The position numbers and the translations under genes are program-made. A stretch of 64,000 nucleotides of DNA, filler included, from Stramenopiles sp. TOSAG23-6 (lineage: Eukaryota), in NCBI GenBank assembly GCA_900128565.1. It is 9 parts of 9 records of this genome, joined end to end, with 100 filler letters (N's around TTAATTAATTAA, not from the genome) between each part and the next. Parts side by side here need not be neighbours in the genome. Positions count along the whole stretch, not along the records: positions 43,116 to 50,181 come from LT636615.1; 8 more parts are not named here. One strand, given 5' to 3'. This document shows, one piece after another, positions 7,104 through 61,568 of this stretch (within the stretch, counting starts at the first letter, position 1; each line of letters starts with the position of its first letter). The notes under the pieces were generated by a model, which made no database searches, was not told the origin of the DNA, and saw only the letters and a list, made by a program, of their open reading frames with translations.

Positions 7104-7203
7104 NNNNNNNNNNNNNNNNNNNNNNNNNNNNNNNNNNNNNNNNNNNNTTAATTAATTAANNNNNNNNNNNNNNNNNNNNNNNNNNNNNNNNNNNNNNNNN
7201 NNN
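7104..7203. other. Artificial contig linker. Identical linkers lie at 14302-14401, 21495-21594, 28676-28775, 35847-35946, 43016-43115, 50182-50281 and 57341-57440
   Basis: 100-nt N-run containing TTAATTAATTAA (stops in all six frames), recurring every ~7.2 kb. Confidence 0.98.
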
Positions 7204-14301: not shown

Positions 14302-14492
14302 NNNNNNNNNNNNNNNNNNNNNNNNNNNNNNNNNNNNNNNNNNNNTTAATTAATTAANNNNNNNNNNNNNNNNNNNNNNNNNNNNNNNNNNNNNNNNNNN
14401 NATTTCAAAAAAAAAAACTAAAATTTGTTAGGTACAAAATTTACTATAAAAAAAATTTCAATTTTTTTGTAAAAAAAAAAAATAAAACATAC

Positions 14493-17400
14493 ATCCCATC
14501 TGTAATCCAATAAATCGTGCAAATCATATAAAGTGCAAATACCATCATTTGCTGCTTTTGTTTCGTAACCATTAATGTGAACAAGCCATTTTTTTCGTAT
14601 TTCTAATTGAATGATTGCTTTTTCAAGCTTATATTTTTCTACTTCAAACATTCGAATATACTGTGAAAAAATATTTTAAAAATTCATTAGACATTTTGTT
14701 AGGTATGAAATTTGTATGAAACTTTTATGAAATTCAAAAAAAAAAAAATCAATTGAAACCCTAACCCTAAGGGTAGGCTTATAACTTTGGGTTAGGCTTA
14801 CGTAGGGTTTACTATAAAAAACGTACATAGATTGAATGTAAATGTCCTTCCAAAACATTCTCATATCTATCGAAGCATTATAGTCTATGGAATCATCTTT
14901 TTGATCTATTTCTGTTTCTCCATTTTTAATTTGCAAAATTTCTATATGTCGAGATTGTAAAGTTTGAAATACCTCCTTTGTAATCTTTGCCTTTATATCT
15001 AAAGGTATATCTAAAGGTAATTTGATATCTGCAGATATAACAGGTCCTGCTTTTTCTTCTTTCTCAAAAACATCATATGATTGAAGTATTTCTTTGAGAT
15101 CATCAATTTTTTCAGGAATAGGAAAATGAATATCAGGGCAATTTGGGTTTTCTTTCATATCCATAAAAGTCTTTTGGAGAGCTTTCTTCATATCTTCAAT
15201 GGAATTTATATTAATTGGTTTGAAGAATTTTTTAAAACTTTTTTTAAAACAGTCAACATATGTTTGATTTTCTAAAAGTGCTGCATGTAATGCTCTTTCT
15301 GAATTCTTCAAGATATCACCTAACAATGATGCTTCATCTTTTTTTGTAGGAAGTTTCATGAGGGCTAAAATACTTTTCAGTGTGGTCTCATAAAATTTAT
15401 CTTCAGCTTTTACAGTTATCCCATTCTTATATTGCTTGCCGTACAATATTTCTAATAAATCATCCCTTTGTTTATCAACCGATTCAATTTCCTTTTGAAC
15501 TGTATCCAATGTATCAATTTCAGGATTTATTTGTACCTTTTTTAAGTGAGTATATATTTGGTCATCATTGGGAAACGACAATGCACGAAATCTAGGTATG
15601 TCTACATTTGCTTTTACTTTTTCAAGTTGACGTTTAAGTTTTTCTGTTAAATCTTTTTGCTCAGCCGTCGGCAAGACTACATTACTATTTAGTTTTCTAA
15701 TATGCATTTTGACTTGTTTTTCAAGTTCTGCAACTTGTTTAAACCTATGTTGAACATCGGAGAATCTAAAACCTTCTGGTTGTTGGTTTTGTTGTTCCAA
15801 GATTTTAACATTATAATATCCTAGTGAAAGGTGCTCTTGTTCAATGTTTAAATTAATTCCATCCATTCCTTCAAAATGTATTGCCTCCCCAAAGCCATAT
15901 AAATACTTGTTAAAGAATCCTTTGTCACTGTCTGTTCTGGGTTCTTTTGTTGGAATAAAAAATTTGGATTTGATTCTTTCAAATTTTACTTGAGCATTCA
16001 TTCCTACAGTGGAAAATATTGAGGCTTTCTTTTTCGCTGCTTCTTTTACTTGAGCATTCATTCCTACAGTGGAAAATATTGAGGCTTTCTTTTTCTCTGC
16101 TTCTTTGTATAATTTATACTGCATTAAAAGGTCATAATTAAGTAAACTTAACTTCTCTATAGCCACTCTATAGATGTAATCATCAAAATATTCAAAATTT
16201 TGCTCTCTTCTTTCTAATTTGCAGGTGTCTTTCTCTTCTCCCTTCGTACGTTCATGTCCAATACGGGTAGAAAAACGGGCAGGGTCGAAGTATTTCCAAA
16301 AGCCCTCTGGCGTGTAATCGGCCTTTTTACCTCTTACCTTGACCAAATTTTTTTTGGGCTCGAATGTTTTGACTTTGAACGTCTTCTTATTCACTTTATG
16401 CTTCACATGCATCCCCACCCTGATTTCCAGAGGGTCGAAGTGTTTCCAAAAATCCGCTTTCGTGTGTTTGGCACTACGACCTGATACCTGGATCAAATTG
16501 GGCTCGACTGTTTTGACTTTGTACGTCTTCCCCGTCTTCTTATGCTGCACACGCATCCCCACCGTTATTACTTTTGGTATTTTTGGTGTTTTTGGTGTGT
16601 TTTGTCTTTTTTGTCTTTTTTGTCTTTCTTGTCTTTTTTGTTTTTCACTTTTCATTTCTGAAAGTGATTTACTACATTGCTCAAAATCCGAATCTACATT
16701 GGTAAGAGGATGTTTCTTATCTTTATTTGAAAATTTGCAATTAAAGCCAAATAAAACCTGTGTTGTGAAAAACAAAAATCGTCAGATGCTTTTGTAAGGT
16801 ATAAAATATTTTTAACAAAAAAAAACTGAAATCAAATGAATGATGAAAAACGTATCGAAAAAAAACTCAAAAAAAAATTAAAAATTTCTTAGGTACAAAA
16901 TTTCGTATGAAAAAAATAAATTTGAAATGAATGATGAAAAACCTACATGAGTTTCTTCACGTGTTATTCCTTCCTCACATGACATTCCAAATGATTTTGG
17001 CAAACATTTAATATCATCAAAATTATACACATAACAATACGCTCTTTTTAAGTACGACGCCGCTCTTGCATATTGAGACTGTATTCTAATACTGTGGTGT
17101 AAGTGATGCGGTACTTCTGAACAAGATTTATTACGATGTATTTTGGAAAAATATTTCAAAAATTTTCTATAAAAAATTTGTTAGGTACAAAATTTTCTAT
17201 AAAAAAAAAATTCGATTTTTTTTTCGGTAAAAAAAAAAAAATTAAAACATACTTCACTGAGGGTATAATCACCATCTTGGGACAATCCAATTTTTGAAGT
17301 GATTATTTTTCTCAGAGAAATTGTTTTTTCTGGGGTTTCTAAGTTAGGTATTTTTAGTTTATCTTTTTCAAATTTATTTTCTTCGCGTTCAAAATCTGAA

Positions 17401-19410
17401 TATAAAAGTTTATGTATTTTGGAAAAATATTTCAAAAATTTTCTATACAAAAAAAATTTGTTAGGTACAAAATTTTTTATAAAAACCAAAAAACCAAAAA
17501 ACCAAAAAAACCAAAAAAAAAATCGAATTTGAAAAAAAATTAAAACATACATTAAACCTATAAAAAATCTGAGTTAAGATTTTTGGAGTGTTTTGTGATG
17601 ATTCTTCGTCTTTTGGCATGTTTTTCATTCTCCATACATTATATGCATCAAATAGTGATTTTTTTACTTTTGTTTTATACACAGAACCAAATTTTTTTAT
17701 ATACTTTCCAATATGTTCTTTCAATTCGTCGTCTTTGTTTTTAAAGTTATTTTTGCATTCTGGATAATTACTAGTATGTAAAAAATCTAAAATTCGGTTG
17801 ATATCTTGTCGAAATTTTTCATCAGTGCCAAGAATTGTGTTGACAGTGTCGTCATCTACCTTCATTTCCAACACTTGAGACAATTGGTCATGTATTTTGG
17901 AGAAAAAAAAAATTCAAAAAAAAATTGTTAGGTACAAATTTTTTATAAAAAAAAAACATTTAGACAAAAAATTTGAAAAAAAAAAATTAAACATACATGA
18001 TGTTGAAATGTTGAAACAGCAATTGCTTCATTCAACAAAGATTGAAAAATATGAGAATGATGATTAGAATTAGACCCATTTTGTTGAATATTCACATGGT
18101 TCTCTGCCAATTGTATCATTTTTTTCCATATAAAATCTGTAATAAAATCATCCAATGGATTTTTCATTTGAAGTTCAATAAATACTTTTCGTCTCTGAAT
18201 GTATTTTGGAAAAATATTTCAAAAAAAAATTTTGAAAATTAGTTAGGTACAAAATTTCGTACGAAAAAAAAAAAATAAATTCGAAATTGAAAAAAATAAA
18301 ATAAAACATACATTCGATTCTGTGCATCTCGAAAACGCATTTCATTCGGTAAGGTAATGAATTGCATTTCTTTTGGCAAATTTGTAATTAATATTCTATT
18401 CAAATCTGTTGAAATAACTTTTGTGCTACATTGACCTTTACCAAATGCAATATTGTACAAATGCAGAATTGATTTCATGTATTTTGGAAAATATTTTCAA
18501 ATGTTTTTTCGTTAGGTACAAAATTTCGTACGAAAAAAAAATCGATTTTTTTGAAAAAAAAAGTAAAACAAACATTTCCTCTTTTGCAGGTTCTGTTGTA
18601 AAATCATCCAACTCCTCTTTACCAATGTATTTTGGAAAAATATTTCAAAAACAAATTAAAAATTTGTTAGGTACAAAATTTCCTAGGAAACCGAAAACAA
18701 ATAAATTCAATTTCAATTTCAATTTAAAATTTAAAAAAAAAAAAAAAACATACATAATAATCCATCTACAATTGTTACTAGTAATAGAGTTACCTGTGAG
18801 TAAATTAACACATGTATGTGATTGTTGGCATTCATCTTGGGTCCGCTCTTTGCCATTTTTTCCATTTTTAAAGCGACAGCAAGTATTTTGGAAAAATATT
18901 TCAAAAAACAAATCGTTAGGTACAAAATTTCCTATAAAACAAAATAGACAAAAAAAATCATACAAAAAAAAAAAATAAAACATACAATTCGCTTTAACTT
19001 CATTTTGATTTTCTTCCTCCAAAAAACGAACATTATTTGCAATATTTGCAATATTTGATTGATTTGTTTGTTGTATTTCAAAAATTTCTTCAAGACTGTC
19101 AAATTGATTGCGTTCTCCACACAGTCTTGTTTTCCCAGTTGCCATTGTTTTAATTTTTTCGATTTTTTTTTCTAACTTTTTAATTTTTGATATTGTTCTG
19201 TCCCTTTTTATGTTTGTCATCTGTTCATTTATTACTTCTAAATCAATCTCACAAAGTGATTTATTCTGAGAGCTAATGTCTATAATATTAACAGCCTCAT
19301 GTAAACAATTTAACATATCATTATCTGGAATATATTCAGAATGTTGAATACCTTTGACTAATTTTTTTGCTTTATCTTGTAAATGATTTTTACATGTTTC
19401 ATTGGACTCT
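14493..19410 (-). CDS. Large multi-exon protein of unknown function, partial. Introns at 18881-18985, 18625-18753, 18477-18573, 18199-18311, 17890-17996, 17412-17550, 17136-17252, 16758-16946, 14656-14826 and from 14492 to the gap
   Basis: Removing the motif-bearing introns joins successive ORF fragments into one stop-free frame. No domain recognised; the 5' boundary is uncertain. Confidence 0.7.
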
Positions 19411-21494: not shown

Positions 21495-21704
21495 NNNNNN
21501 NNNNNNNNNNNNNNNNNNNNNNNNNNNNNNNNNNNNNNTTAATTAATTAANNNNNNNNNNNNNNNNNNNNNNNNNNNNNNNNNNNNNNNNNNNNAAAAAT
21601 GTTTTTTTTTTGAATTTTTTTTTTTGAATTTTTTTTTGGTTTCATACGAAATTTTGTACCTAACAAAAACTTTTGTTTTTTTCAAATATGTTTCAACAAT
21701 ATAT

Positions 21705-22830
21705 GTTCATTTTGATGATGAAGAAGCTGTAATATACTATAATGATTGTATTAAAATTGCGACAACTTCTGCCTTACAAGAAATGTATCTTTTTTTTTTC
21801 AATTTTTTATCTAAATATTTTTCATAGTAAATTTTGTACCTAACAATTTTAAAAAAAAAATTTGAAATATTTTTTCAAAATATATGCTCATTCCTGGTTT
21901 AATGGCCATTTTTGCACCTGCAGTTGTCGGCTTTTTGCTTGGCGCACCAGCGCTGGCAGGTTTGCTCATTGGTGCATTAACATCTGGATTTATGTTGGCA
22001 GTTACAATGTACGTTTTTCATCATGAATTTATTAATTTATTTTTTTTTGTACGAAATTTTGTACCTAACGATTTTTTTTTTTTTTTTTTTTTAAAAAACA
22101 TGCCGAATGCTGGGGGGGCTTGGGATAATGCTAAAAAAATTTTTTTTTTTTTTTTTTTTTGACAAAACATGGCGAATGCTGGAGGTGCTTGGGATAATGC
22201 TAAAAAGTTCTGTGAAAAAGGAGGTTTAAATGTTGATGGAATCACTGACAGAGGTAAAGGCACTCCTGCTCATTCTGCAACTGTGGTTGGTGACACTGTT
22301 GGTGATCCTTTTAAAGATACATCAGGTCCATCATTGAACATGTATGTTTTTTTTTTTTTTTGGTAAAAAAATTTTGTAAAAAAAAAAAAAGAAAAAATAT
22401 TTTTTTTGTACAATATTTGATTTTTTTTTTTTTTAAATTTTTTTTTAAATTTTTTTTCATAGTAAATTTTGTACCTAACCAAAAAAAAAAAAAAACTAAA
22501 ATTTTTTTTTTGAAATATTTCTTCCGATACAGTTTGATCAAGTTGATGTCCATTGTAGCTCTTGTCCTAGCACCGTTATTCAAAACTTGTTGTCAAAGTC
22601 ATTTTGATACTACCGATGGTATAGTTGCAGGAATTGTTCTTTTTACATTGACAATTGTTTTATGCGCTATAATTTCGTATTTAATGAACAAATCAAGTGA
22701 ACAACGAAAACTTGAAGTTGATGCGAGAATGAGAGCCATCAACGGGAACCACAAACCTGCTTCAAGTAAAGCTGCAGTTGTCCCACAAAACGAGTCAAGA
22801 AGTCCAAATCAAACAGATTTGGTCAAGTAA
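21705..22830 (+). CDS. Membrane H+-translocating pyrophosphatase, C-terminal part. Exons 21705-21784, 21886-22008, 22171-22341, 22533-22830
   Basis: Spliced product reads [22 protein letters not shown] and [25 protein letters not shown]. Confidence 0.95.
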
Positions 22831-24240
22831 TTGACTTTATTCCTACTGTCGAGTATTGTTAGTAGTATATTATTGATATCGTACCATTTTTTTTTTTGAG
22901 ATTTAAATTTTTTTTTTTTTTTTTTTTCCGTAAAAAACGAAATTTTCGTAAAATACGAAAAAAAAAAAAAAAAAAAAAATTGAAAATGTTNTAACAAAAA
23001 ATGGTATGAAATTTTATGATACGAAAACTACATCATCGAATCGAATAGGAGAGAGATTGCATTGGCTCAATTGAAAGATCTGTACCTAATACCATACTTG
23101 AAACGTTTCGTCAATAATGAATGAAAGTGTTGAGTGTTGCTTTGTTATTATCGAAATGTTTCATAGAGAATTTTGTACCTAATAAATTTTCAATTGGCTG
23201 TCTATTATTATCATTTATTTTTTTTTAATTTTTTTTATCTTTTAGATGATTAGGTACAAAACAATGGTACTGAATCTCACAATGCGTACAACACTAATTA
23301 TTTTTTTTCTATTTTTTTTTTATTTTTTCATTATTTTTTTATTGTTTTTTTATTTTTCCTAATTTTTTCATTGTTTGTTCATTTAGAAGTCCAAAAAAGT
23401 TCTTGAGACTTACCAGTTGAAAGATCTCTTTTCAATTGAACGAATTGAATAAGATATTTTGTTGTCATTTAAAGTAAAAAATTGAGTTGTGATCGTAATA
23501 GTTGACGAATTTCAGTTGGTATTGAACCAGTAAATTGGTTACCAAACTGCCACAGTCTTTCGAGATTTGCTAGTTGACCAATTTCCGTTGGATCCAGAAA
23601 ATTTATTCGAAAATTATTCATAAAAAAAAAAATTAGTAAAATAAATAAATAAAAAAAAAATAATAAAAAAAAAAATTCAAAATTTGCAGGATCCGGGGGC
23701 TTTTTTCTCCCTGGATATCCTGCAAATTTATTCGAAAATAATTTATAAAAAAAAAAATTAAAAATAAATAAAAATTTAATAAATTAGACATTGGACAATA
23801 TCACAAATACGTAAAAATTATTTCATTACAAAAAAAAAATTTTTTAATAAAATAAATCTGAGATATAGAAATTTCAGAAAGTAACGTAAATAAAATCTCA
23901 TTTTTTCGTCGACGAAAAAATGAGAAAGTAACGTAAATAAAATCACCACTTTTTTGTTCAAAAAAATCGAACAAAAAAGTGGTAAAAACAGGTTTTTTTT
24001 TTCCCTCATATATCGGCAAAGTAATAAAAAAAAAATATTTTATATTGAATCTGCCAAATATATTTATACATTGAATTTATCAAAAGTTAATGTACAGATC
24101 CCAGAATTTCTTTTTTGATTACCGGGTTCCGAACCTTTTGGTAAGTTGCCACACCATTTATATTATATATAGTTTCATTATACTCTTCTTCGTCAAACAA
24201 GAGCTTTCCCCGACACTAGTCATATGTTCATAGGGACGAG

Positions 24241-28506: not shown

Positions 28507-28775
28507 ATGTATTTTGAAAAAATATTTCAAAAAAAAAAAAAAATGTTTTTTGGTTAGGTACAAAATTTACTAAAAAAAAATTTACTAAAAAAAACCAAAA
28601 AAAAAAAAAAATTCATACAAAAAAAATTCACAAAAAAAAAAAAAAATATTTTTTTTTTGTTTAGGTACAAAATTTNNNNNNNNNNNNNNNNNNNNNNNNN
28701 NNNNNNNNNNNNNNNNNNNTTAATTAATTAANNNNNNNNNNNNNNNNNNNNNNNNNNNNNNNNNNNNNNNNNNNN

Positions 28776-35650: not shown

Positions 35651-35946
35651 TATTTTGTGAGATATATATATAAATTTTTTTTTTTTTAAATGTTAGGTAC
35701 GAAATTTCGTATGAAAAAATAAATTTGAAAAAAAAATTGAAAAAAAAAAAAAAAAAAAATGTTAGGTACGAAATTTCGTATGAAAAAAAAAATTTGAAAA
35801 AAAAAAAATTCAAATTTTCAAAAAAAAAAAAAAAAACACACTTTTCNNNNNNNNNNNNNNNNNNNNNNNNNNNNNNNNNNNNNNNNNNNNTTAATTAATT
35901 AANNNNNNNNNNNNNNNNNNNNNNNNNNNNNNNNNNNNNNNNNNNN

Positions 35947-39880: not shown

Positions 39881-40215
39881 CTGGATATATAAGGATGTTT
39901 GCTATGAAATCACCAGTATTCTCTGGTATTTATTACAAACGAATGCTGATGGCAAAGAAAAAGGACAGGAGGAACTCCAGTTTGATTTTTAAAAGAGCAC
40001 CAGATTGTTGACCCAAGAGGAACTTTGTTACACGGTCAGTAAAAACTGACTTGATCGATACCCGGTAACGTATTTTTGGTTGAATGACAGGAACTAACCC
40101 TAATTTTCATAGAGAATTTCTTACCTAAATAATTGGTCACCTGACCTCTATAGTCTATACTAAAGCCAGTAATTTTTTTTTGTAAAAGGCATTTCAAAAG
40201 TGCGCAAAGAATAAA

Positions 40216-42956: not shown

Positions 42957-43359
42957 ATGTATTTTGGAAAAATATTTCAAAAAAAAATCTAAAAAAAATT
43001 GTTAGGTACAAAATTNNNNNNNNNNNNNNNNNNNNNNNNNNNNNNNNNNNNNNNNNNNNTTAATTAATTAANNNNNNNNNNNNNNNNNNNNNNNNNNNNN
43101 NNNNNNNNNNNNNNNAAAAATTAATTTAAAAAAAAAAAGTTTTTTTTTTTTTTTTTTTATATTTTTATTTTTTTTATTTTTTTTATTTTTTAAACCAAAA
43201 AAAAAAAAAAAAAAAATTTAAAATAAAAAAAAAAAAAAAAAAATTAATTTAAAAAAAAAAAGTTTTTTTTTTTTTTTTTTATATATTTATATTTTTTATA
43301 TTTTTTATATTTTGTACCATACAAAAAAAACAAACAAACATTTTCGCATACTATATTTT

Positions 43360-43950
43360 TGCACACTATATGATGCCACAGTTGCTCTGTATCGAAAGAA
43401 AAAAAAGTTTTCATTTGAATTTACAATTTCATTAACTTGGCGGTTAATTAACCCTAACCCTAACCTAAGAAATATTGCTGAAAGTGGAACTTTTCATCGT
43501 ACTTCAAGATTTAAAGGGTTACTCATCGACTCGAGATGGAAAAAAAATCCTGAAGCAGTCAAACATGAAACCCCTAACCCTAGTAATACAGAAAATACAA
43601 AAATACAAAAACAACAAAAACAACAAAAAATACAAAAACATATAACAGGTATGTCAGGAACAATTTTTTTTCCTGAAGTGAATTGCGATGAGCTAGGGTT
43701 AGGGTTAGGAGTACTGGACAAAACTCAAAAAAATCAAAAAAATCAAAAAAATCAAAAGAGTCCAAAACATTCAAAAAAAAAAAAAAAGATAATTTTTGAT
43801 GCAACTACATTCAAGCTCTTGAATACAAAAAATGTTGAGTATTGTGAAGAATTTCAAGAAACACATAAACAAATTAGAAATTCACTTCAAAATACAATAT
43901 CAAAATCAGTACAAATATTTTATTCAAAATTTTGTGAATTTGTGGAATAA
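43360..43950 (+). CDS. Probable Aha1 N-terminal-like domain (Hsp90 co-chaperone), last exon
   Basis: DATVALYRKKKKFSFEFTISLTW...GTIFFPEV resembles the Aha1_N pattern, interrupted by low-complexity insertions. Confidence 0.5.
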   Translation, partial: CTLYDATVALYRKKKKFSFEFTISLTWRLINPNPNLRNIAESGTFHRTSRFKGLLIDSRWKKNPEAVKHETPNPSNTENTKIQKQQKQQKIQKHITGMSGTIFFPEVNCDELGLGLGVLDKTQKNQKNQKNQKSPKHSKKKKKIIFDATTFKLLNTKNVEYCEEFQETHKQIRNSLQNTISKSVQIFYSKFCEFVE

Positions 43951-44277
43951 ACAAATTAGAAATTCACTTCAAAGTACAATATCGAAATCAGTACAAATAT
44001 TTTATTCAAAATTTTGTGAATTTGTGGAATAAATTAAATAATATGTCTCTTTTTAGGCTCTTTTTTTTTTAGGCTCTTTTTGGAGTTCTAAAAATTTAAT
44101 GGTTTTTTTTTTTTTTTTTCATTCATAAATTTGAAATTGAAGATTTTTCGAAATTCTAACCCTAACCCTAGGAGGGAGGGACTCTCGCGAAACGAAAAGA
44201 TACGGACCTCTGAGAGAGAGATCTCGATCACGTTGTGTACAATTTCAATACTTTTGAAATTGTATCTTCTTTAGAGG

Positions 44278-46484
44278 ATGAATATGTCCAATTCTCCACG
44301 GCGACGTACTGTAAAGGATGCTAGATATAGAACAACTCTTGCCGCTCCTGGTGTTTTTTCTAAAATAAACACGTCCAAGGATTACAAAACAATGCCAATT
44401 GTAAGCAAGGGGAACCTCGTTGGCTCATTGATAGAGTCTTGTTTAGCTCATTCTTCTTCGGCGAGTTCTCCAATAGAATCGATCAGATGTACCAACACAA
44501 CAGGTACATCGGACGATTCAACGAAAAATATTACATATTCGGGTAACCCACGTGATTTTTTTAAAACAAAAGAAGCTACTATTTACAACGGACAAAAAAC
44601 ACAAAGAAAGCATCTTCTTCGTAAAGCACCGGAAGAACCAGTGACTGAGTTCTTCATACATCNAAAAAAAANCCGTANTTGNCCGTATTATAACACCGAA
44701 TCAGCATTATCTACAACATAACGAAATATCTACAGAGTCATATCCTCCACATCCATATCCGTCTGATTGTGTAGGTAGTGAGTTCACAGAGAAAATCCAT
44801 AAAATGGAAACGAAATTATTTTTAGAAACTCAGAAACGACTCAAACTTCGAAAGTCTCTTTTAGAAAAATTAGATACGAAATTTCCTACTATTGATATAT
44901 GTGATGTACATAACGAGGATACAATTCAGTATAATGATAAATTGCAATCTGTAGGAAATTGTTTTGAAATGAAAAATATTGAAGCCCCAATGTGCATTGG
45001 TGAAACCTTGACCGTAATGAGTGATGAAAAAACAAAATTTAAAAATGAAAATTTCAATATTGTTGATACTATTGTTGATAATATTGTTGATAATACTATT
45101 GATAATGAAATCAATATCAGCAGCAACAATAGTAACAATACTAATATGAATTCAGTTGAATACAAAAAGTGTATAGTAGAAGATGAAACANTNAATGNAA
45201 AAAAAAAAANANTTANAAAATGCAATTACAGATTTATTATTGACACGAAAAAACGTACAAGAAGCATCTGGACAATTAAACCTTTCTCAAACGAAATTAA
45301 GACAATTAGAAAACGAACTTTTTAAAATGTTATCTCTTTGTAGATGCATTGATGGAACAAACTTGAAATCTATCAATGAGCTTTCTGAATTGATCCAAGA
45401 GCCAATCAAAAGACATTTTTCTGGATATGATAATTTGGTTTTTATGTACGTTTTTTTTTTTTGTTTTTCATACGAAATGTTGTACCTAACCAAACAAAAA
45501 AAATAGACCTTTTCTTTCAGTATGATATGATGGATGTTTCATGATACTTACTTTTTATTTTTATTCTTTTTTTTTTTTTTTTTTTTTTTTCATGAAACAT
45601 TTTGTATGAAAATGTGTTGCTAATTGTATATATATATTTTTTTTAAATATTTTTTTTTACACAACATTCAAGACAAATTAAAAAAAATGTCAGAATTATT
45701 CCTACCTACACCGTTAGAAAAGACATTTCAAGACGCTCTCAAACGAACAACTAGAACAAATTCAAATAATTCAAATAATACAAATAATACAAATAATACA
45801 AATAATACAAATAATACAAATTGTCTTTTAAAAAAAGATGTACAATTACTACACCAAGAAGATAAAGAAAGTATACAATATAATAATAATAATAATAATG
45901 ATGATTATCCTACAGATTTCAACCATCAAAAACATCTCTATTATAAAAAAGATGTAAATAAAGTGATACATAGCCATTCCAATAGTAACCCTAATCCTAC
46001 TCCTAACGAATTCGAAAGATGGTCAAAACATGATTTGAGAGATTTGGTTTGTTTTCAACAACAAAAACAACAAAAACAACAAAAACAACAACAACACAAA
46101 AACAATGATTATAAAAAAGTGAAAAAAAAAAACGAAAACACTCAAAACACTCAAATGTTTTTTGAAAATAAATTCAAAAAAGCGTCAATTTATGGAATAT
46201 ATAAACGATATATTGTATCTGAACCACCAAAGCAACCAACAAGTACAACAAATACTGTCTGTGTGGAATGTCCAGATGGGGAATTTTTCATGCTAGGCAT
46301 CTACCACTCGTCTGAAGGGCACCGACCTTTTGAAGAAATAAATGCTTTTGAAGGGAAAATGGTTGAAGTAATTGGTGTAAAGCATTCAGCCACACCACCA
46401 AATTATTATGATAAATATGATATCTTGGCAAAAATTACACCTTATATATCAGATTTTACTATAATGGAACATCGAACAGTATAA
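44278..46484 (+). CDS. Hypothetical low-complexity protein(s), fragmented by ambiguous bases and at least one motif intron starting near 45446
   Basis: Successive same-strand ORFs with Ns at the frame breaks, and a GTACGTTTT...GTACCTAAC element. Confidence 0.4.
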
Positions 46485-47004
46485 TATCGTGTACAATTTC
46501 AAATTAGAAAATAAAAAAAATATGAAAAAATATAATGATGTCGTGTTTTCTTTCACTCTACGTCTAGGGTTAGGGTTTATCAGTACTCATTTAGTATTAG
46601 GGTTAGGGTCGCTAGATATACTATATATTAAATATTTTTTTGGCAGTGACTCTTTCATTGTTTTGTTGTTTTGTATACGATTGAATAGACTAGTATATTC
46701 ATAGTGACTTGCTCTTACACAACTATAAAGACTATACAGTAATAAAAGTTTAAAAAAAAATTCAAAAAAAAAAAAAAAATTTTAAATTAAAAACATAAAA
46801 ATTTTGAATTAATTTTTTTTTATTTTAAACTCCTCGGAGACACATCTTTGTCACCTTGGTAGAAATAAAAAAGTATAAACTTGTCTATATAGTATCTTTC
46901 AAAATTGTGTTTGGGCTAATCTTGCACATTATAGAACACATCAATTTGAAGCTACCCCACGATATTTTAAAAAACACACGAAAATCAGTGTCAATTCTTT
47001 CTAA

Positions 47005-48105
47005 TTACTTTGAAAGATTCTTCGCATAGGGTACAAGAGCCACACGTAAAAACTTTGAAGATGTGTATTTCTTTCTGACGGCCTGCAAATTAGATTTCGT
47101 GTTTAAGATATGTTCCTTAATTTTATCTGCACAAGTTTGCAGTTCACTGGCTTTGTATCTGGAGTACCTTTCGAGTGTAGGTGTCCACGATTGAGTTTGA
47201 TTATTTGCTTTAAGCGCGAGATGTACGCAAGCAGCGGCAATTGTTGACGGAAGGAAACGAAGCATACCATATTCTTGCATCGTTCGCTCACAAAAGAAAT
47301 GAGCAAGTTTATCGGTAGTATTGTCACACTTTGCAGCCTTGATGAATCTTTTAAGGAAGCAGATTGGCGTTGGAACAGTCAACTCAAAGCCGAGAGTGTT
47401 CAAGACGAGACTTTCCATTTGTAATATTTGGTCGCGTTTATAAGCTCTGTCGGTGATGTATACAAAATCGCGCACTTCAGGAAAGTAGATTTCTTCATAC
47501 TTTGATGCAAGTAACATACACGTGACACCAACGAGTTGAAGACGTTGCCGAGCGACGACTTTTCGTTCGAGGAACCTATCGATAAGGTTGACAGTAAGAA
47601 AGAGCGTCTCGGGCATGAGTTTAAATTTGAGGTGAACTTCAACGAGCCAATCGACAAGAATAGCACGCATCTTTTCGTTGATATGCGGTTGATCTTTCAT
47701 ATACGTAGGAGAAGGACCATTGCGCGATTCAATTTTACGAAAGTAAGCAAAGATATCGTTGACATACTCCGTAACGGCTTGAGGGTTTGAACGATCTCCG
47801 GCGTCAATATCGTGAACATTAGTTCTGTGCTTGTTCAAATGAAGGTGCTTCACTTGCTCGTTAAAGTACGCATCGGACTCACCTGTTGGCTTCTTTACCA
47901 CGTCCACTTCAGGTTTTGTACGAAGGGAAGGTTTCTTTACCCCTGGTTTAACACCGGCTAAAGAAGCTGATTTGTCGGAACCAACCTTGTTCGTAATGTC
48001 ACGAAGACCTCCTCCACGGCGAGTGGAAACTCCAGCTTTTCCCATCATTACTTCGTTTGCATGAGAGCGAGTATTATGTTGGTAAACATCAGTTGAAGAG
48101 TACAT
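47005..48105 (-). CDS. Mitotic cyclin B, intronless
   Basis: Cyclin box MRAILVDWLVEVH...ETLFLTVNLIDRFL...LQLVGVTCMLLASKYEE, and a D-box-like LRDITN; ATG at 48105. Confidence 0.95.
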   Translation of the reverse strand: MYSSTDVYQHNTRSHANEVMMGKAGVSTRRGGGLRDITNKVGSDKSASLAGVKPGVKKPSLRTKPEVDVVKKPTGESDAYFNEQVKHLHLNKHRTNVHDIDAGDRSNPQAVTEYVNDIFAYFRKIESRNGPSPTYMKDQPHINEKMRAILVDWLVEVHLKFKLMPETLFLTVNLIDRFLERKVVARQRLQLVGVTCMLLASKYEEIYFPEVRDFVYITDRAYKRDQILQMESLVLNTLGFELTVPTPICFLKRFIKAAKCDNTTDKLAHFFCERTMQEYGMLRFLPSTIAAACVHLALKANNQTQSWTPTLERYSRYKASELQTCADKIKEHILNTKSNLQAVRKKYTSSKFLRVALVPYAKNLSK

Positions 48106-48521
48106 GATCAGATTAAATGAAGCTGGGGTAAGACGGAGAAAGACGAAGGAGAAGAAAGCGAACTCAACAGTTGTTTTTGTTTTGTGTGTTTGAAGTTTTG
48201 AGGAGTAGAAAAGGATACTGTTGTTGAGCGGCAAAATACATTTGAATTTTGAGGGATTTGTATACGAAATTTTCGTACCTAAAGCCAGACAAACCTGCTG
48301 CGCGCCAACGTGACGATCATATTTTTGAGATTCCCGCTTACTTTGATTTTCCAAAATTTTGAGGAGTCAGTGCTCCGATTTTATTTAGGTACAAAAATTT
48401 CGTATACATTTGACCACGAGTTCGACACACACAACATGATTTCTCTGCTTTGCGTCTTCTTCGCCAGTTGCCTCGTCAAAAGTCAACACAATCAAACTAT
48501 CCGCATTGATCATATTTTGCG

Positions 48522-49486
48522 ATGGTAGCTACCGATAGCACTGAAGGTGATTGGTCTACAATGACCAAATGTGGCCGAACACGCCAGATTACACCTGAGG
48601 GTTCTCCAAAACATAAATTGGAGTGCAAGTGGTCTTTTTGGTACGATGCAAAAAACGCGCAACGTGGGAAAGTTTCATGGCAACGCAACATGGAAAATTT
48701 AGGTTCATTTGATACTGTAGAAGACTTTTGGTGTCACTATGTACATATGCGCAAGCCAAGTACAATGCCAACTGATAGTAATTACTACTGCTTTCGTAAT
48801 GGGCTCTTTCCTGCGTGGGAAACCTTCCCAGGCGGTGGTTGTTGGATCCTCAAGGTAAAGAAAAGTCCAGGTGTTCTCAATACACTCTGGCAAAATCTTT
48901 TGTTTGCTCTAATTGGTATGTTTTATTTCAAATTATAACTAGTATTGAGTTTTGTTTTTCTCTTTGTACAGATTGTATCATGTTGTTTGTGTGGCGTTTT
49001 TTCTTTCATTACCTATGAATGAGGTAATTTCTTCTTTTCTTTGATTTCTTTGATTTCTTTGATTTCTTTGATTCATGAGTGATGTGAAATATTTGGACGA
49101 GACGGAAAAACCCGGTGGTCGCCAATCTCTAAGAAGTACTGACATGTTTGAATCATTCTTTTTTTTACTTTTGATTATTTTCTATAATCAACGTTCTTTA
49201 TTATTACTATTACTTTGATGAAATTATGTTGTGTACTAGAATGAATTCATCATACAATTATGAACCAATAGTCCAAAATTAATTATAAATATAGTTATAC
49301 TCACTTTATATGATGACAACCTTGATACATATTAAACACAATACAGGCGAGATATTTGAAGAACCAGCAGTTGTTGGTTGTATGCTTGCTGCTAGAGGTC
49401 GGTTCGATGTTATTTCAGTTTGGAATAATAATCCAATTGCAAATACGAGATTTGAAATTGGAGAAGTATTGAAAAGTGTCCTACAG
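48522..49486 (+). CDS. eIF4E-family cap-binding protein, 3'-partial. Canonical GT-AG intron 48916-49346; second intron from 49487
   Basis: HKLECKWSFWY, FDTVEDFW, PAWE...GGCW, spliced LIGEIF, and ISVWN. Confidence 0.93.
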
Positions 49487-50084
49487 GTATGTTCCATAGA
49501 TAGTCTACATTTTTTTTTACATTCAACATTCGAAATGTGTTTTTTTAGTTGTATTGTTGTATACCATACGGTAACAATGATGTTTCACAACATTTCGTGT
49601 TTTTTTTTTTCACTTTTTTGTTTTTTTAAATGGTAATGTCATGAACTCGTGAATGAGTCCCGAATTATCCTCAAATTCGGGACTCATTCACGAGACGACA
49701 GCATGCCTTACAATCGTACAACTTTCTTGGCGCAGTACTATTTCGTATTGCACATTGCGCTCTTGACAATACGTTGTATTCAATTCCTGTATATCACATC
49801 TTATCCACGATAATATTGATTACGGTAGAGTTTTTTATATTCGTTTTGAATTCGATTTGCGTCCAGACACCAAGATAAATTAAAAATTGGGAAAAACTAA
49901 ATTTTACTCTGAAGTTTTTTCAGACTTTTTAGTTTTTTCATTGAAATGTTCTTAAGACTATTTTCAAGTAATTTGCAAATTAAGTAAGCCGAATTACTAT
50001 GATGTTCATGTGACATTTGTTCATTGAAATTATTCGAGTCATGGCATTTCAATATTTCATGTTTTTCGTGTTTTTTTTTTTAAT

Positions 50085-50123
<39 letters not shown>

Positions 50124-50281
50124 TAAAAAAAAAAAAAAAAAAAAAAAATTTGAAACTAAAATTTTTTTTTTACGTTAAAAANNNNNNNNNNNNNNNNNNN
50201 NNNNNNNNNNNNNNNNNNNNNNNNNTTAATTAATTAANNNNNNNNNNNNNNNNNNNNNNNNNNNNNNNNNNNNNNNNNNNN

Positions 50282-53200
50282 CCTGTGCGAAGAACAACGG
50301 ATCCACTGCTACCTTCTGATGTTGTTCCACTTGTTAAACTCAAATCGCCACTAACTCCTGACTCACCTCCATTTGATGTTTTTATTGAAAAGTTACCAGA
50401 TGATGATGATGAGCCATATCCAGAAATAATCGATATTGCACCACCAGTAATATGCGTACTTTCACCTGCTTGTAGAATAATTCTCCCACCTTCAGATATA
50501 TTACCGCTACCGACGATAACACTAACAGAACCACCAGTTCCGAGTTTGGCAGTCCCAGATTGTAACATGAGCATACCAGAGCTTCCATTTGCCGCATCTC
50601 CAGATGCAATTGATATATTACCTGATACACCTGTCGTACCGGAAATTGATGTTTTAATACTGAAGGAACCACTAGATGCTGCGTCACCAAAACCAGTCAT
50701 CACCGATATTGATCCTCCTGTTTTACCAGAGGTATCATTCAATGATCCGGCTGAAATAGTAACACGTCCACCAGAGTCGATTGATCCGTTGCCCACCAAA
50801 ATACTAATACTGCCACTTGCGCCATCTACAGCACCACCCGACCTGAAAAGGATATCACCGCTGCTCCCTTTCTTGCCCCCCCCGGTTGAGATATTTATTG
50901 CACCTGAAGCCATACCCTTGATTGTGGTTATGCTAAAGGTTCCACTCGATGATGATCCACCATATCCACTTACCAAAGATATGTCTCCACCCGTTGAACT
51001 TTCTTCACCGACAGCTTGAGAGATTTTTCCTGCATGGATGGTGATACGACCGCCAGTGGTTGTATTACCCTTGCCAACACTTATACTCACACTTCCGGAT
51101 GACCCCTTAACAGCCACACCTGTTCTCACTATAACATTACCACTACTTCCTTTCACTGATTCACCAGTGAATAGGTGCATGGCACCGGATACACCATTGT
51201 TATATTGATCACCTTGCCCTCCGGAATTGGCTGTTAGTATATTGAAGCTTCCAGATGAGGACATTGAACCGAAACCACTTAAAATACTTATGGAACCACC
51301 AGTAACGGTTGTACTTTCCCCGGCATTGACGATAACACGACTACCAGCTTTAAAATTGCCTTTCGATGCGTGCATTTTTAATTTGCCTGCCACGCCAAGA
51401 TGGGCAGACCCAGAACGGAAAATGATTGCTCCACTCGAACCCTTTTCAGATTGTCCTGTAGAAAAAAATATTGATCCACTTACACCTCCATGTGGTGTAG
51501 GACCAGAATTTGCGGTCTTTAAAGTAAAGACCCCACTTGATGAAGATCGACTGTACCCACTTACCAAAGATACAGCACCACCAGTTGAGTTTACTGTTTC
51601 GGTGCTCATACCGGAAGAAATAATGATACGGGAACCCGTCGTTAAATTACCATTCCCCGATAGAATACTAATATTACCTCCTCGACCACTCTTTGTATTT
51701 CCAGTGTGAAGACTGATATGACCACTTTGGCCTAAAGATGTGTCTCCAGTGTTAAGTGTCAATACCCCAGATGTTCCAGCTGTACCTGCATTACGAGTAC
51801 GTATACTGAATGAACCTGATGATCTTTTTGAACTATATCCCGAAGTAATTGAAATTACGCCACCTTGAAAAGTTGTGCTTTCTCCAGAAGTTATAACAAG
51901 CCTACCACCACTTATTAATTTTCCATTTCCTACAATGACGCTAATACTACCACTGCTTCCTTGTGAGGAAGATCCTGTTCGAAGTGATATCATACCGCTA
52001 CTTCCTAAGGAAGCAGAACTTGAAGATATATTCAAAGAACCACTAATACCTTCTGTGCCAGAGTTGGGCGAGCGAATACTGAATGAACCACTAGAACTGA
52101 TATTTCCATATCCAGATATAATTGATATAGCACCGCCAGTAAATGATTCAAAAGAACTTCCTGATTCAATAGATACACGTCCTCCAGAATTTATATTACC
52201 ACGACTAACTACGATGCTGATACTCCCTGCAGTTCCTTTCGCGCCGATACCTGTTCGGATTAATAAGCTACCACTGGTACCATTAGATGCAGCACCTGAA
52301 CTGAGACTGAGAGACCCGCTTTGACCATCCCCATTGGGTGTGAGGATACTGAAACTTCCACTTGATTTTGAAGAACCATAACCCGAGATTATTGAAATAG
52401 AACCCCCTGTGGCGTTAGTAGTTTCCCCAGCGCTGATCATAATACGACCACCATCAGTTGTGGTACCAGAACCAACTAGGATACTAATACTACCACAGGT
52501 TCCTCCAGTTGTAGAACCAGTACGAAAAGTGATATCTCCGCTATTTGCTAAAGACGATGTACCAGAATTAATACTGATAGATCCTGTAGTACCATTATTA
52601 CCACTTCTCGCCGTAAGAATACTGAATGATCCACTGGATGAAATTTTTCCATACCCACTTATCATAGAGATTGCGCCACCTGCTGATAATGTGCTTTCAC
52701 CCGCACTCATTACTATTCGACCACCTGTTACAATTTTACCACTACCTATGTTAATACTAATGCTTCCTGACACACCTGCTTTTGCATGCCCAGTTCGAAG
52801 TAAAGCATGACCAGAGAGTCCATTGTTAGAGTCTCCTGATATTACCGATAAACTGCCAGATTGTAATGCATCACCAGTGCGAATACTAAAAGACCCACTC
52901 GAACTGATAGAACTATATCCACTAATCATAGATACGCTACCACCTCTTTTATCGGTGGAAGAACCAGCTGACACAGAAATTCTTCCTCCAGTGGATATAC
53001 TTGCGTTCTGGACAGTAATACTGACGGATCCCGCAGTTCCACTTTCTGCACTTCGGCTGATGAAGACGACTGTTCCGCTGTTACCACCACCTGTATTACC
53101 CGATGTGATATTCAAGGATCCCGAAATACCATTAGTGTTGCGACCGGTATTGGTGGAAATACTAAATGAGCCACTAGATGTTGTAGTACTATATCCTGTG

Positions 53201-56200
53201 ATAATAGAAATATCCCCACCGTGATCGTTCGTGCTCCCCCCGGAACTGAAAATAATACGACCACCAGTGTTAGAGGAACCACTACCAACCTGAATACTAA
53301 CACTTCCAGCTTGTCCAAGTGTTGCTGAGCCGGTTCTAAGATTTATCATTCCACTATTCCCAGCATTTGTTGTCCCAGATACAAAACCAAGTGACCCAGA
53401 TGTTCCTTCTAATCCTGATTTTGAAGTTTTTAAGCTAAACGAACCACTAGATGATCTGCTTCCATATCCTGAATGGATAGATACGGCACCACCAGTCATA
53501 CTTGGTGCCCCACCTGCTCTAATTATAAATCTGCCACCATTTGCATTTGTACCACTACCAACTAGAATACTCATAGAGCCTGCGGTGCCACTATTGGCAG
53601 ATCCTGTACGAAGAGTTACTTCACCGCTCCCACCGTGAGAAGTAGTTCCTGTAGAAAATGACATTGATCCCGAAAGACCTGTACTTCCCGAATTAGATGT
53701 TCGAATACTAAATGAGCCACTTGAACTACTAGACCCATAACCTGATATCAAGGATATACTTCCCCCAGTAACTGATGTGCTTTCACCAGCGTGTATCGAT
53801 ACGCGACCACCCCCCGTTGTTGTACCACTACCAACGATAATGCTGATACTTCCACTTGGCCCATGAATAGCAGATCCAGAGCGTAAGATCAATGTACCAG
53901 AACTTCCGTGGCTGCTTGAACCTGTTATTATTGCGATGGAACCGCTAGTTCCTCCACTTTCAGAATTCCCTCCAGCATTGAAAGATTTGATACTGAAGGA
54001 ACCACTGGATGATGCATGACCGTAGCCAGATATAATGGAAATATCACCTCCTGTAGAATTGGCACTTTCACCCGAAGTTTGTATAATACGACCACCAGTT
54101 CCGAGATTACCGACGCCAACAAGCATACTTATGCTCCCAGAAGTTCCAAGAGTAGCTACCCCAGTCTTCAGGGTTAGCATACCACTACTTCCGCGTGTAG
54201 CTTCTCCCGTTTTAAACGATATAGCACCAGTAGCATAATCCTTATTTGTTTCAATACTAAATGAACCACTTGAAGTGTTTTTCCCATAACCTGAAGTTAC
54301 AGATATGCTACCACCAGTCATGTTTGTACTTCTACCAGCTTTAAGCACAATACGTCCACCAGAAGTATAACTACCTCGACCCATAACTACACTAACACTT
54401 CCACCCGTGCCACCAGCGTCAAACCCAACAAGTTTCGATTTCATTGTTATGCTACCACTGCTTCCATATGTGGACTTACCCGACGAAATATTTAGCCCTC
54501 CACTGCTTCCCGTGGTACCAGCTCGTGTTGTTGAAATACTGAATGATCCACTAGAACTAGCTCTACCGTAACCAGAAACCATCGATAGTGATCCTCCTGT
54601 TGCCTGTGTGATTTGGCCAGAACTTAACACAATCCGACCGCCATGTGATTTTGTTCCACTTCCAACTATAAAACTAATACTACCACCCACACCAGATTTT
54701 GCAGATCCTGTGCGTATTGTGAGCATCCCACTGTTTCCAGCTGATGAAGTACCTGTTACAAGAGATAGTGAACCGCTTGATCCATCGACCCCAGAATTTG
54801 CGGTGATAACACTGAAAGTGCCGCTAGAAGATATTCTACTGTATCCACTAATCATTGAAGTCGAACCCCCTGTTGAATTTGTGCTCTCACCGGCATTCAT
54901 CATAAGCATTGCACCTGGAGGTTCATCGCCCGAACCAACAACAATACTGATACTTCCACCAGTACCCGATGTGGCAGATCCAGAACGAATGATAATATCC
55001 CCAGTGTTACCATTTGAACTTGCCCCCGAAGTCAATTGGAGGGAACCCGATACTCCCCCATACCCAGAATTTGTTGTGCGGATGCTAAATATTCCACTAG
55101 ATGCAAATCTTCCATATCCGCTAATCATTGAGAATGAACCACCGGTTGATGATGTTGTTTCTCCTCCATTAACAGTAAACTGTCCTCCTCTGTCTTTATC
55201 ACCTGTACCCACAACTATACTAATACTACCAGCAATTCCTGCAGTCGCACTTCCTGTTCGAACTATAATAGACCCACTGTTTCCTTCCGAAGTTGTTCCC
55301 GATGTAAATGATAATGATCCGCTGATACCGCTAATACCAGCATTAGAAGTATGCAGTGAAAAACTCCCCGAAGACTTATTCGAACCATAACCTGAAATGA
55401 GCGACACAGAGCCTCCATTAAAACCTTCACCTCCGCGAATTACAATTCGCCCACCGACCCCATTTGTTCCACTACCAACAATTACACTAACACTGCCACT
55501 TGTTCCTAGTGTTGCAGAACCAGTGCGGAATATCATATTTCCACTACTTCCACCACTTGCTGACCCTGTAGCAATAGATATATCACCCGAAACACCATTC
55601 AAGCCAGAACGGGAAGTGCGGACACTGAAAGAGCCACTTGAACTCAAAGATCCATATCCTGAAATTAAAGAAATGGCGCCTCCATTTAGCGATGTACTTT
55701 CACCAGCACTTATAATAATGCGCCCACCAACTGATTCATTGCCGCTACCAACTACAATACTCAAACTTCCACTTGTTCCTAATGTTGACGAACCTGTACG
55801 TAGCCTGATTATACCAGAGCTGCCACCTGTTATAACTTTGCCAGATGCCAAAGATATTGTCCCAGATATACCGTCTATTCCTGTATCAGAAGTTCGGAGA
55901 CTAAATGAACCGCTTGACGATACATTTCCATAACCAGACATTAATGAAATTGAACCACCTGTAGAAGTATTGCTTTTTCCAGCTGATATAACAACACGAC
56001 CACCATATAAAACATTACCACTTCCGATGATCACACTCATGTTTCCACCAGTACCCGATGTGCTACTTCCTGTCCGGAGTATCACGGAGCCGCTAAAGCC
56101 AGCAGAAGAATTTCCGGAAGTGATATTTAATTTTCCATTTGCTCCGTGAGAACCCGCATTTGATGTTTTAATAGAAAATGATCCACTTGAAGATGTAGAG

Positions 56201-57340
56201 CCATACCCTGAGATGAGAGAAAAGGATCCACCAGAAGTAGATGTACTTTCCCCGGCGCTGATTACGATCCGTCCCCCGGAAGATGAAATCCCACTCCCAA
56301 CAATTACACTTATAGACCCGCTAGCTCCAAGTGTAGCTGAATTAGAGCTGAGCGAGATTGTACCACTTTTACCACTACTAGATGAACCAGACGTCAATGC
56401 AATGGCGCCTGAAATACCCGCATCACCTGAGTTATTTGTCATGATACTGAACGAGCCACTAGATGTTTCCCTTCCGTGTCCCGAGATGATTGAGAAGTTT
56501 CCACCACTTACTGTTGTGCTTTCTCCTGCGCCCATACTTATACGACCTCCAACAGAAAAGCTACCTTTACCAATAATTACACTAATAGATCCTCCAGTCC
56601 CACTTATCGCAGATCCAGAACGAATAGTAACATAACCACTACTTCCTTTTGTAGCTGAACCCGATATTAAAGAAATCTCACCTGATACTCCTGAATTTCC
56701 GGCAAAAGGTGTACGTATGCTGAAGGAACCACTTGATTTTGTGCTTCCATATCCGGTTATAATGGATAAGCCACCACCTGTGACATCTGTACTTTCACCA
56801 GACGTCATTACAATTCTTCCTCCTGCATTATAATCGCCACTTCCAACAGAAACATTAATATTTCCACCAGATCCATTTACTCCAGAACCCGATGCAAACG
56901 TGAGCATACCACTACTACCGATCTTCGCAAAGCCTGTTCCTAAAGTCATAGAACCAGAAGCCCCATTTGTCCCTGATGCTAACGTTTTTAGAAAGAATTC
57001 CCCGCTAGTTTCATTTGCACTAAAGCCAGAAATCAAATGTATTGCCCCGCCTGTTCCATCTAACATTGTACCTGGAACGACTTTGGCAGCTCCACCAATT
57101 GATTTTTTTACGTCACCTTTACCGACAAGAAGACTTATACTGCCACTCGTGCCAAGCCTTGCTGTGCCAGTGGAGATTATCAACCCCCCACTATTACCCT
57201 TAGATGTTGTACCTGTTTTGAATGATAAAGAACCAGACACACCGTTATGCCCTGCATCCGATGTCTTAATAATGAATACACCACCAGATGTTATTTTGCC
57301 ATACCCACTTATGATTGACATTGTCCCTCCTCTCGAATTT
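50282..57340 (-). CDS. Giant Gly/Ser/Thr-rich repeat protein (>2350 aa, both ends missing), probable beta-solenoid/fibre
   Basis: One open frame spans the whole contig. ~15-aa GG/SG-x-hydrophobic-x-hydrophobic-xxG units form a ~92-aa six-unit super-repeat (~25 copies). Confidence 0.85.
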
Positions 57341-57525
57341 NNNNNNNNNNNNNNNNNNNNNNNNNNNNNNNNNNNNNNNNNNNNTTAATTAATTAANNNN
57401 NNNNNNNNNNNNNNNNNNNNNNNNNNNNNNNNNNNNNNNNTATTTCAAAAAAAAAACTAAAATTTGTTAGGTACAAAATTTCGTATGAAAAAAAAACTTA
57501 AATTAGAAATTCTTATAAAATGTAC

Positions 57526-58831: not shown

Positions 58832-59204
58832 TGCGGTGGATAAAATAGGAGGTTCTGTTTATAGCAACTCTACTGCTACTAATAGGGGCTCGTAAAAATG
58901 TTCACTGACTTGATCTTCAATTTTGATGCTACTAGCCTAGCTAGGGTTAGGGTTAGCGCTTCGGGTCAAAATTTAATAAAATCGTAAAAAAAAAGAATGA
59001 AAATCTTGATGGCGATGGATGATGGATGGATGGCCATTGATTGGCCAATACTAAATCTTAGGACTAAATCAGCCGATTCGAACGATCCAGGTAATATTAT
59101 TTACCAACAATGCTATTTAACTGTAATGTTAACTTTGATTACTAAACAGCGGATTGTCGACGTTTAATTGAAATTGAATATACTTGGATAGAATTATACT
59201 TCGT

Positions 59205-61283: not shown

Positions 61284-61568
61284 AGTCACTTATCTCTTCT
61301 AATAAATCTCAATAGATCAAATTCTGTGAGCGCACTTGTCCTATATATAGGTGAATACGGAAAACGATTCGACGATCGATCTCTCTCAATTGACTCACAT
61401 AAAAAAAAGATATTGATGATCGAACCCTAACCCTAGCCATCATTATTACCGATACCCGGTACACTTACTAGAAATTCAGTTCACCACACAAGTTGACCAC
61501 GCGACACGAGGCGCTTGTTCTTCTTCATCTAGAACCGCAGTCGCGATTTTACATATTATTAACTAACC

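Follow-up and report, generated by a model that had tools for sequence, protein, structure and literature searches.

In an uncultured marine stramenopile, the divergent promoter between a cyclin B gene and an eIF4E gene carries a 25-nt inverted repeat whose two arms each contain the core motif of an intron family that is abundant in the same 64-kb stretch of DNA (hereafter the window, meaning the whole stretch analysed). We tentatively favor the reading, though at somewhat less than even confidence, that this pair derives from a transposon and represents a MITE-like relative of the intron family, located in the promoter without being an intron itself. A two-ended unit of 148 nt, with 24-nt terminal inverted repeats that carry the core motif of the family, would have been inserted into, or retained in, the shared promoter, and its arms, if active at all, would act as DNA, i.e., as transposase-recognised ends that could fold into a hairpin or cruciform. 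For this unit we infer mobility, an origin by insertion, and absence from mature as well as precursor RNA. The MITE-like reading is chosen because inverted ends, a length of 148 nt, the lack of an open reading frame and a flanking ATTT come together with the core of a mobile element and with core-only fragments in other non-coding places.

The inverted pair and its promoter

The positions of the pair, its surroundings and the neighboring genes are compiled in Table 1.

Table 1. Features of the cyclin B / eIF4E locus (positions count along the window).
Feature	Position	Strand	Remarks
Cyclin B coding sequence, one open frame	47005..48107	-	Cyclin_N 4.7e-56, Cyclin_C 8.4e-34
Direct copies of (A/G)TTTTGAGG, three	48195, 48246, 48356 (span 48195..48364)	+	second copy adjoins arm 1
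Left ATTT	48256..48259		overlaps outermost repeat pair; weak, spotted post hoc
Arm 1, TGTATACGAAATTTTCGTACCTAAA	48259..48283	+	intron core reads in sense on the plus strand
Unit of 148 nt, GTATAC...GTATAC	48260-48407		24-nt terminal inverted repeats, no open reading frame
Spacer, 100 nt, 44% G+C	48284..48383		includes CGCG-rich CTGCTGCGCGCCAACGTGACG (48296-48316)
Arm 2, reads TGTATACGAAATTTTTGTACCTAAA on the minus strand	48384..48408	-	one mismatch versus arm 1
Right ATTT	48408..48411		candidate flanking direct repeat, read from sequence; weak, spotted post hoc
TTGACCACG	48410..48418	+	directly after arm 2; candidate promoter element
eIF4E exon 1	48522..48854	+	IF4E domain 5.8e-28
eIF4E intron 1, GT...AG	48855-49346	+	from sequence

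The first-pass annotation of this DNA had described a 25-bp inverted repeat with one mismatch around a 100-bp spacer, and both its strings and its coordinates proved exact. The two arms of 25 nt are complementary at 24 positions (96%), lie 100 nt apart, and are convergent, pointing at each other. With three mismatches allowed, the arm pattern matches nowhere else in the 64-kb window, and two such matches were found in 0 of 100 dinucleotide shuffles. When folded as single-stranded DNA, a 168-nt stretch around the pair forms a long hairpin of -23.6 kcal/mol (z = -4.0) that none of 200 shuffles equalled. The occurrence of the repeat beyond chance, arms composed of the family core plus one base (see below) and the hairpin at z = -4.0 all argue for the MITE-like reading. 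The window as a whole has 123 inverted pairs with arms of 20 nt or more within 400 nt of each other, of which the 25 longest are A/T runs, palindromic intron cores or artificial linkers; the promoter pair is distinct from such low-complexity sequence. A search of the pair against Rfam returned nothing at gathering score, and a weak match to a hairpin-type miRNA (29 bits versus the 140 needed) merely reflects the inverted repeat.

The ATTT on either side of the 148-nt unit is weak evidence for a candidate target-site duplication, given as it is by only 4 nt in AT-rich DNA with a register picked post hoc (chance of ca. 1% to 5% of a random origin by our own estimate, with the free choice of register taken into account). 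No second copy of the unit, its spacer or its flanks was found in the 64-kb window, and the window has no exact copies of (A/G)TTTTGAGG other than the two at this locus. Such a single instance would also be expected of a local inverted duplication without function or mobility, for example by template switching or quasi-palindrome correction between nearby core-like fragments. The two arms show a single difference over 25 positions, as against around 3 of 25 (our count) between the arms and the nearest family copy, as a duplication would have it, and the local direct repeats suggest a repeat-prone stretch of promoter. However, a core-derived seed would still be needed here, which makes local duplication a sub-case of a transposon-derived origin, and the flanking ATTT would be left unexplained. 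We consider this scenario very improbable.

The pair lies between the cyclin B ATG at 48107 (minus strand), 152 nt from arm 1, and the eIF4E ATG at 48522 (plus strand), 114 nt from arm 2, so that its earlier placement in a divergent promoter of these two genes is borne out. All of this is located on a single piece of the window (43116-50181), and cyclin B and eIF4E are therefore truly adjacent. The best protein relative of this cyclin B (P0001) is identical to it in every aligned block (310/311 residues), with a common start ATG. Its source label begins with GSMAST32, from which we take the organism to be an uncultured marine stramenopile. In the public gene model of this relative (311 aa), two stretches of 15 and 40 codons are left out that the DNA (47005-48107, minus strand) reads through in one open frame, and these probably represent two wrongly predicted introns. 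In agreement with this, the stretch was found in 24 sequencing runs from 11 studies, all of them seawater or marine-plankton metatranscriptomes; 21 of the runs are recorded as RNA, and the best share was 0.34.

With 414 nt, the region between cyclin B and eIF4E is the longest of the five divergent intergenic stretches examined (ca. 262 nt if the unit is subtracted). Its G+C content is 39% and that of the spacer 44%, compared to 33% to 39% in the four other divergent promoters, 12% to 24% in 14 units of the intron family and 25% to 28% in the two ordinary introns of eIF4E. In composition, the pair-bearing stretch resembles promoters and is unlike introns. The length of this intergenic stretch and its non-intron-like G+C content are in line with the MITE-like reading. 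At the same time, the spacer is G+C-rich and has a CGCG-rich stretch like other promoters of the window, and it therefore looks like native promoter rather than the interior of an AT-rich element. This promoter-like spacer counts against the MITE-like reading, as do the weak ATTT repeat and scans of viral and bacterial contigs that stayed at zero or at chance (see below).

Composition also bears on the possibility that the arms are parts of spliced 5'UTR introns, which could take three forms. Each arm might supply the branch-point core for an intron that belongs to the distal gene, with 5'UTRs that overlap head to head; or it might be read towards the proximal gene as TTTAG/GTAC(G/A)A, a 5' splice site, with 3' ends at pyrimidine-rich tracts that run to a CAG at ~48124 (cyclin B, 155 nt) and ~48467 (eIF4E, 79 nt); or the whole 148-nt unit might be removed, like the introns with inverted and direct repeats of Amoebophrya. 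In the family, the core is indeed found within introns and reads in sense, both ATGs are preceded by pyrimidine tracts with a terminal CAG as seen by eye, and splicing of the eIF4E candidate would remove an upstream ATG at 48436. Furthermore, introns with terminal inverted repeats of 8 to 20 nt and direct repeats of 3 to 5 nt have been described (PMC7789003), and a core variant of the window at 40104, with GTAACG ca. 40 nt upstream and T9...AAAAG ca. 60 nt downstream, resembles a 5'UTR intron by eye. The candidate introns have a G+C content of 0.35 to 0.41, however, versus 0.12 to 0.28 in all 16 introns measured, and neither family ends nor T-runs surround the arms; across the promoter, family-type ends appeared only as 10-nt patterns with one or two mismatches. 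The head-to-head version would moreover require each start site to fall within ca. 75 nt of the ATG of the other gene. The uL16 gene, which has no intron, also has a pyrimidine patch of this kind in front of it, so that such tracts may be features of promoters or 5'UTRs. Composition and the missing family ends favor the earlier view that the pair lies outside any evident intron. Splicing of the arms appears improbable to us and is retained at that level because the 40104 variant looks 5'UTR-intronic and CAG-ending tracts precede both ATGs.

The candidate promoter element TTGACCACG has its sole other exact copy in the window at 61493, 69 nt upstream of the ATG of ribosomal protein uL16/L10e. 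Together with GATACCCGGTA and ACTGACTTGATC, it is one of three exact long motifs common to unrelated divergent promoters, each found twice (at 40045-40067, 58904-58915, 61451-61461, 61493-61501 and 48410-48418) and expected 0.01 to 0.2 times. Separately, telomere-like dimers (CCCTAACCCTAA/G) have 27 matches in the window versus 0.12 expected, for example at 46564-46608, 58941-58958 and 61425-61436, the latter two between genes, and are candidates for general promoter or boundary sites.

The main rival to the MITE-like reading sees the arms as paired cis-regulatory sites of a dimeric DNA-binding protein, maybe derived from a transposon or copied by the intron family, and placed in mirror image so that each gene sees TTTAGGTAC(G/A)AAAATTTCGTATACA 114 to 152 nt upstream of its ATG. 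This arrangement would agree with the internal palindrome of each arm, given in arm 1 by TACGAAA-T-TTTCGTA and read with zero to one mismatches on both strands, and with an identity of 24/25 between arms whose flanks are unrelated. The arms also bracket the CGCG-rich center in mirror symmetry, keep an equal orientation relative to each proximal gene and, in case of arm 2, adjoin the TTGACCACG motif that is common to the uL16 promoter. Against such sites, none of the four other divergent promoters has the arms again, apart from a degenerate core at 40104, and no known factor accounts for them. The relatives recovered, which are too distant for a close comparison, provide no support either: among 39 related cyclin B loci (best protein identity 55% to 63%), none has a match to eIF4E exon 1 at E <= 0.01 and neither a same-species locus nor an orthologous cyclin B / eIF4E promoter was found, the motif is absent from the 12 loci examined (L001 to L012), and five relatives with only 55% to 63% protein identity have no comparable inverted repeat upstream of cyclin B. 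Paired binding sites seem rather unlikely to us. With the heat-shock-element motif as a yardstick, a heat-shock-element reading of CGAAATTTCG was ruled out, the arm spacing being wrong by our reading.

The intron family of the window and its core

The intron family to which the arms are related is evident from 46 occurrences of TTTGTACCTAA with up to one mismatch in the window. A family profile of 115 positions, built from 14 full-length introns, gave 44 matches at E < 0.01 in the 64 kb, and 35 of these share the strand of the nearest long open reading frame. One of the nine off-strand matches is a reverse-strand echo of the palindromic core, and the other eight are located >470 nt from a listed open reading frame, where shorter minus-strand frames occur. 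The family units measure 86 to 142 nt with 12% to 24% G+C and follow the layout [AT]GTAYGTTTT, T-runs, TTTC(G/A)TACGAAATTTTGTACCTAAC, T-runs, GAAATATTTTTCCAAAATAC[AT], with [AT]GTAYGTTTT ... AAAATAC[AT] as conserved ends. Conserved coding sequence, such as that of the H+-pyrophosphatase gene, is broken up by units in sense orientation. An abundant repeated family of this kind, with its 44 matches, 35 of them on the strand of an open reading frame, and its conserved ends, again speaks for the MITE-like reading of the promoter pair. By analogy, the picture is that of transposon-derived introns, or introners, a pattern described in PMC9860276, and the element behind the family, as judged from its sequence, would clearly be mobile now or recently. 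The family core is found 35 to 60 nt before the 3' end of the units and has a branch-point-like CTAAC followed by a T-run; given this position, the CTAAC and the T-run, the core in introns most likely acts in RNA, as a putative branch-site region.

The boundaries of these units are unusual in several respects. Typical stretches of the family are located at 8152-8987 (minus strand), 16758-18985 (minus strand) and 21617-22482 (plus strand). A terminal AG is absent from the last 12 nt in 13 of 14 full units, which end in ...AAAATACAT, and the unit ends GTATGTTTT / AAAATAC form short inverted repeats accompanied by a direct repeat of AT or ATG. The bordering Met of two exons of the H+-pyrophosphatase gene falls at profile position 583 in both cases, which suggests that the junction falls in the duplicated ATG and has no GT-AG phase. 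The family consequently looks like an introner with unusual boundaries. Around 42 nt of a pyrophosphatase exon start (…AACATG(C/G)CGAATGCTGG…GGGATAATGCTAAAAA) are duplicated in the preceding intron (22096-22140 versus 22164-22208).

The window itself contains filler blocks of 44 N + TTAATTAATTAA + 44 N approximately every 7.17 kb, with slowly falling spacing (7104-7203, 14302-14401, 21495-21594, 28676-28775, 35847-35946, 43016-43115, 50182-50281 and 57341-57440), which look like stop-codon linkers between nine size-sorted contigs, so that the window is not a single stretch of chromosome. Several of the joined pieces terminate inside copies of the intron family. The piece at 50282-57340 (minus strand) is a single open frame of >2,300 codons that meets linkers at both ends and encodes a Gly/Ser-rich protein with repeats of ca. 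60 to 70 residues (…SGSFSI…).

Each arm of the promoter pair consists of the 19-nt majority core of the family, TACGAAATTTTGTACCTAA, with one base inserted at the same spot, a C in arm 1 and a T in arm 2. Sites within one edit of the 19-nt core number 23 in the window versus none in 100 shuffles, so that the kinship of arms and family is real. It is also narrow: the profile aligns the arms at model positions 48-72 (6.8 bits, E of 0.26) and 53-74 (6.3 bits, E of 0.38) out of 115, likeness to the family is confined to the core, and likeness from end to end with family members was not seen. When compared to the rest of the family consensus, the arms show no likeness; out of 1000 shuffled arms, 285 and 218 reach an equal score. 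The inserted base is also the reason why the arms are absent from ungapped matches to a 32-nt core matrix. The statement in the first-pass annotation that each arm matches the intron core is accordingly right for the 19-nt core plus one base, but does not extend to an ungapped match, and the family profile yields only 6 to 7 bits. As the arms converge, with arm 1 in plus sense and arm 2 in minus sense, each of them is "sense" only for the distal gene.

Three more specific relationships were ruled out. The arms are not decayed full-length copies of the family, of which the profile aligns the core alone; the family 3' end is not a degenerate inverted arm, as its match does not surpass that of shuffles; and over a span of 30 nt neither arm is the sole best match of the other, since family copies tie once flanks are included. 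A likeness limited to the core and the single copy of unit and spacer in the window count against the MITE-like reading.

Copies of the core also exist apart from recognisable introns. The first-pass annotation had listed single intergenic variants near 23161 and 40105, and both exist as core-only matches (23156-23193 with E 1.4e-5; 40104-40137 with E 0.011). Both of these variants might belong to UTR introns, as suggested by a T-run and an AG ca. 60 nt downstream of each that we noticed by eye. They are not the only ones, since further copies of GTACCTAAT are located at 23082 (plus strand) and 23250 (minus strand). The copy at 23250 and the core at 23175 compose a second convergent pair with 13 shared bases and ca. 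66 nt between its members. Among the 43 exact GTACCTAA sites, eight lie outside family matches, five of them in two intergenic clusters, and copies of the motif outside introns were found to exceed chance, which disposes of one objection that the first-pass annotation had raised against its own reading. The central 13-mer of the arm, ACGAAATTTTCGT, has one further copy at 22937, where ca. 0.005 are expected. These core fragments outside recognisable introns (23156-23193, 40104-40137, 23082 and 23250) and the 13-mer at 22937 are a further argument for the MITE-like reading.

Downstream of the pyrophosphatase stop codon we observed a palindrome of ca. 137 nt (22876-23012) that is made of a T-run ... 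ACGAAATTTTCGT ... A-run and centered on the 13-mer of arm 1. It is followed by three copies of GTACCTAAT (23082-23262), two of which are convergent.

Core and arm patterns had 0 matches in the viral_contigs collection and nine single bacterial matches in genome_contigs, which corresponds to chance level and comes without family context. Among the 34 open reading frames scanned, none matched a transposase-named family.

Comparison with known elements

Taken as a whole, the earlier proposal of a DNA-level site or two-ended MITE holds insofar as the anatomy of the unit fits a MITE and the tie to the core goes beyond chance, and is weakened by the lack of a second copy of the unit and of any likeness beyond the core. 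MITEs are non-autonomous elements with terminal inverted repeats, and a family of them is defined by many copies. The unit is similar to them in its small size, terminal inverted repeats, candidate target-site duplication and lack of coding capacity, but differs from them in the single copy seen in the 64-kb window and in having no known parent element or transposase. Transposon-derived transcription-factor sites are likewise known to occur in promoters. The pair shares with those the presence of a repeat-family motif in a promoter and a symmetric arrangement, but is unlike them in its failure to recur in the four other divergent promoters (apart from the degenerate core at 40104).

Introners as described in PMC9860276 are similar to the intron family of the window, whose numerous short members are nearly identical, read in sense, and have conserved ends as well as short repeats at their flanks; the promoter arms carry the core of this family. 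The promoter unit differs from that pattern by matching only the core of ca. 25 nt and by being far more G+C-rich than the family. A second comparison is offered by the introner elements of Amoebophrya, which, according to PMC7789003, have terminal inverted repeats of 8 to 20 nt and direct repeats of 3 to 5 nt. Like the 148-nt unit, those elements feature hairpin-capable inverted ends, a short direct repeat at the boundary and no transposase inside, and like the intron family of the window (13 of 14 units), they mostly lack a terminal AG and have short end repeats. They differ in that their host is a dinoflagellate rather than a stramenopile, in that the arms studied here span 24 to 25 nt instead of 8 to 20 nt, and in that the unit lies in a promoter.

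Our literature search found no description of introners for MAST-4 and no account of introns with non-canonical splice sites for marine stramenopiles, and titles and abstracts on the single-cell genomics of uncultured stramenopiles were without any on intron families. The main text of PMC12130899 has no mention of stramenopil-, MITE, intergenic, branch point or promoter; its supplements may list more species. No description of such an element in uncultured marine stramenopiles was found in the literature.

The inverted pair adds a further case to a type of feature that is already known, with a putative function, and the case for it is one locus read at the level of sequence. In the most specific form of the MITE-like reading, which we regard as unlikely, the 148-nt unit would be a two-ended, hairpin-forming member of the mobile class behind the intron family that was captured in this uncultured marine stramenopile at a site between genes, with arms that would serve as a DNA-level module for the mobilising enzyme and as branch-site region once the element lands in a gene. 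If the arms were regulatory instead, a motif of a repeat family would be wired into a promoter that serves both the cell cycle and translation. Should the unit prove to be a mobile member of the wider kin of the intron family, it would show such an element in a place where splicing is not selected, would mark the part of the intron that is needed at the level of DNA, and would bear on the conversion of transposons to introns.
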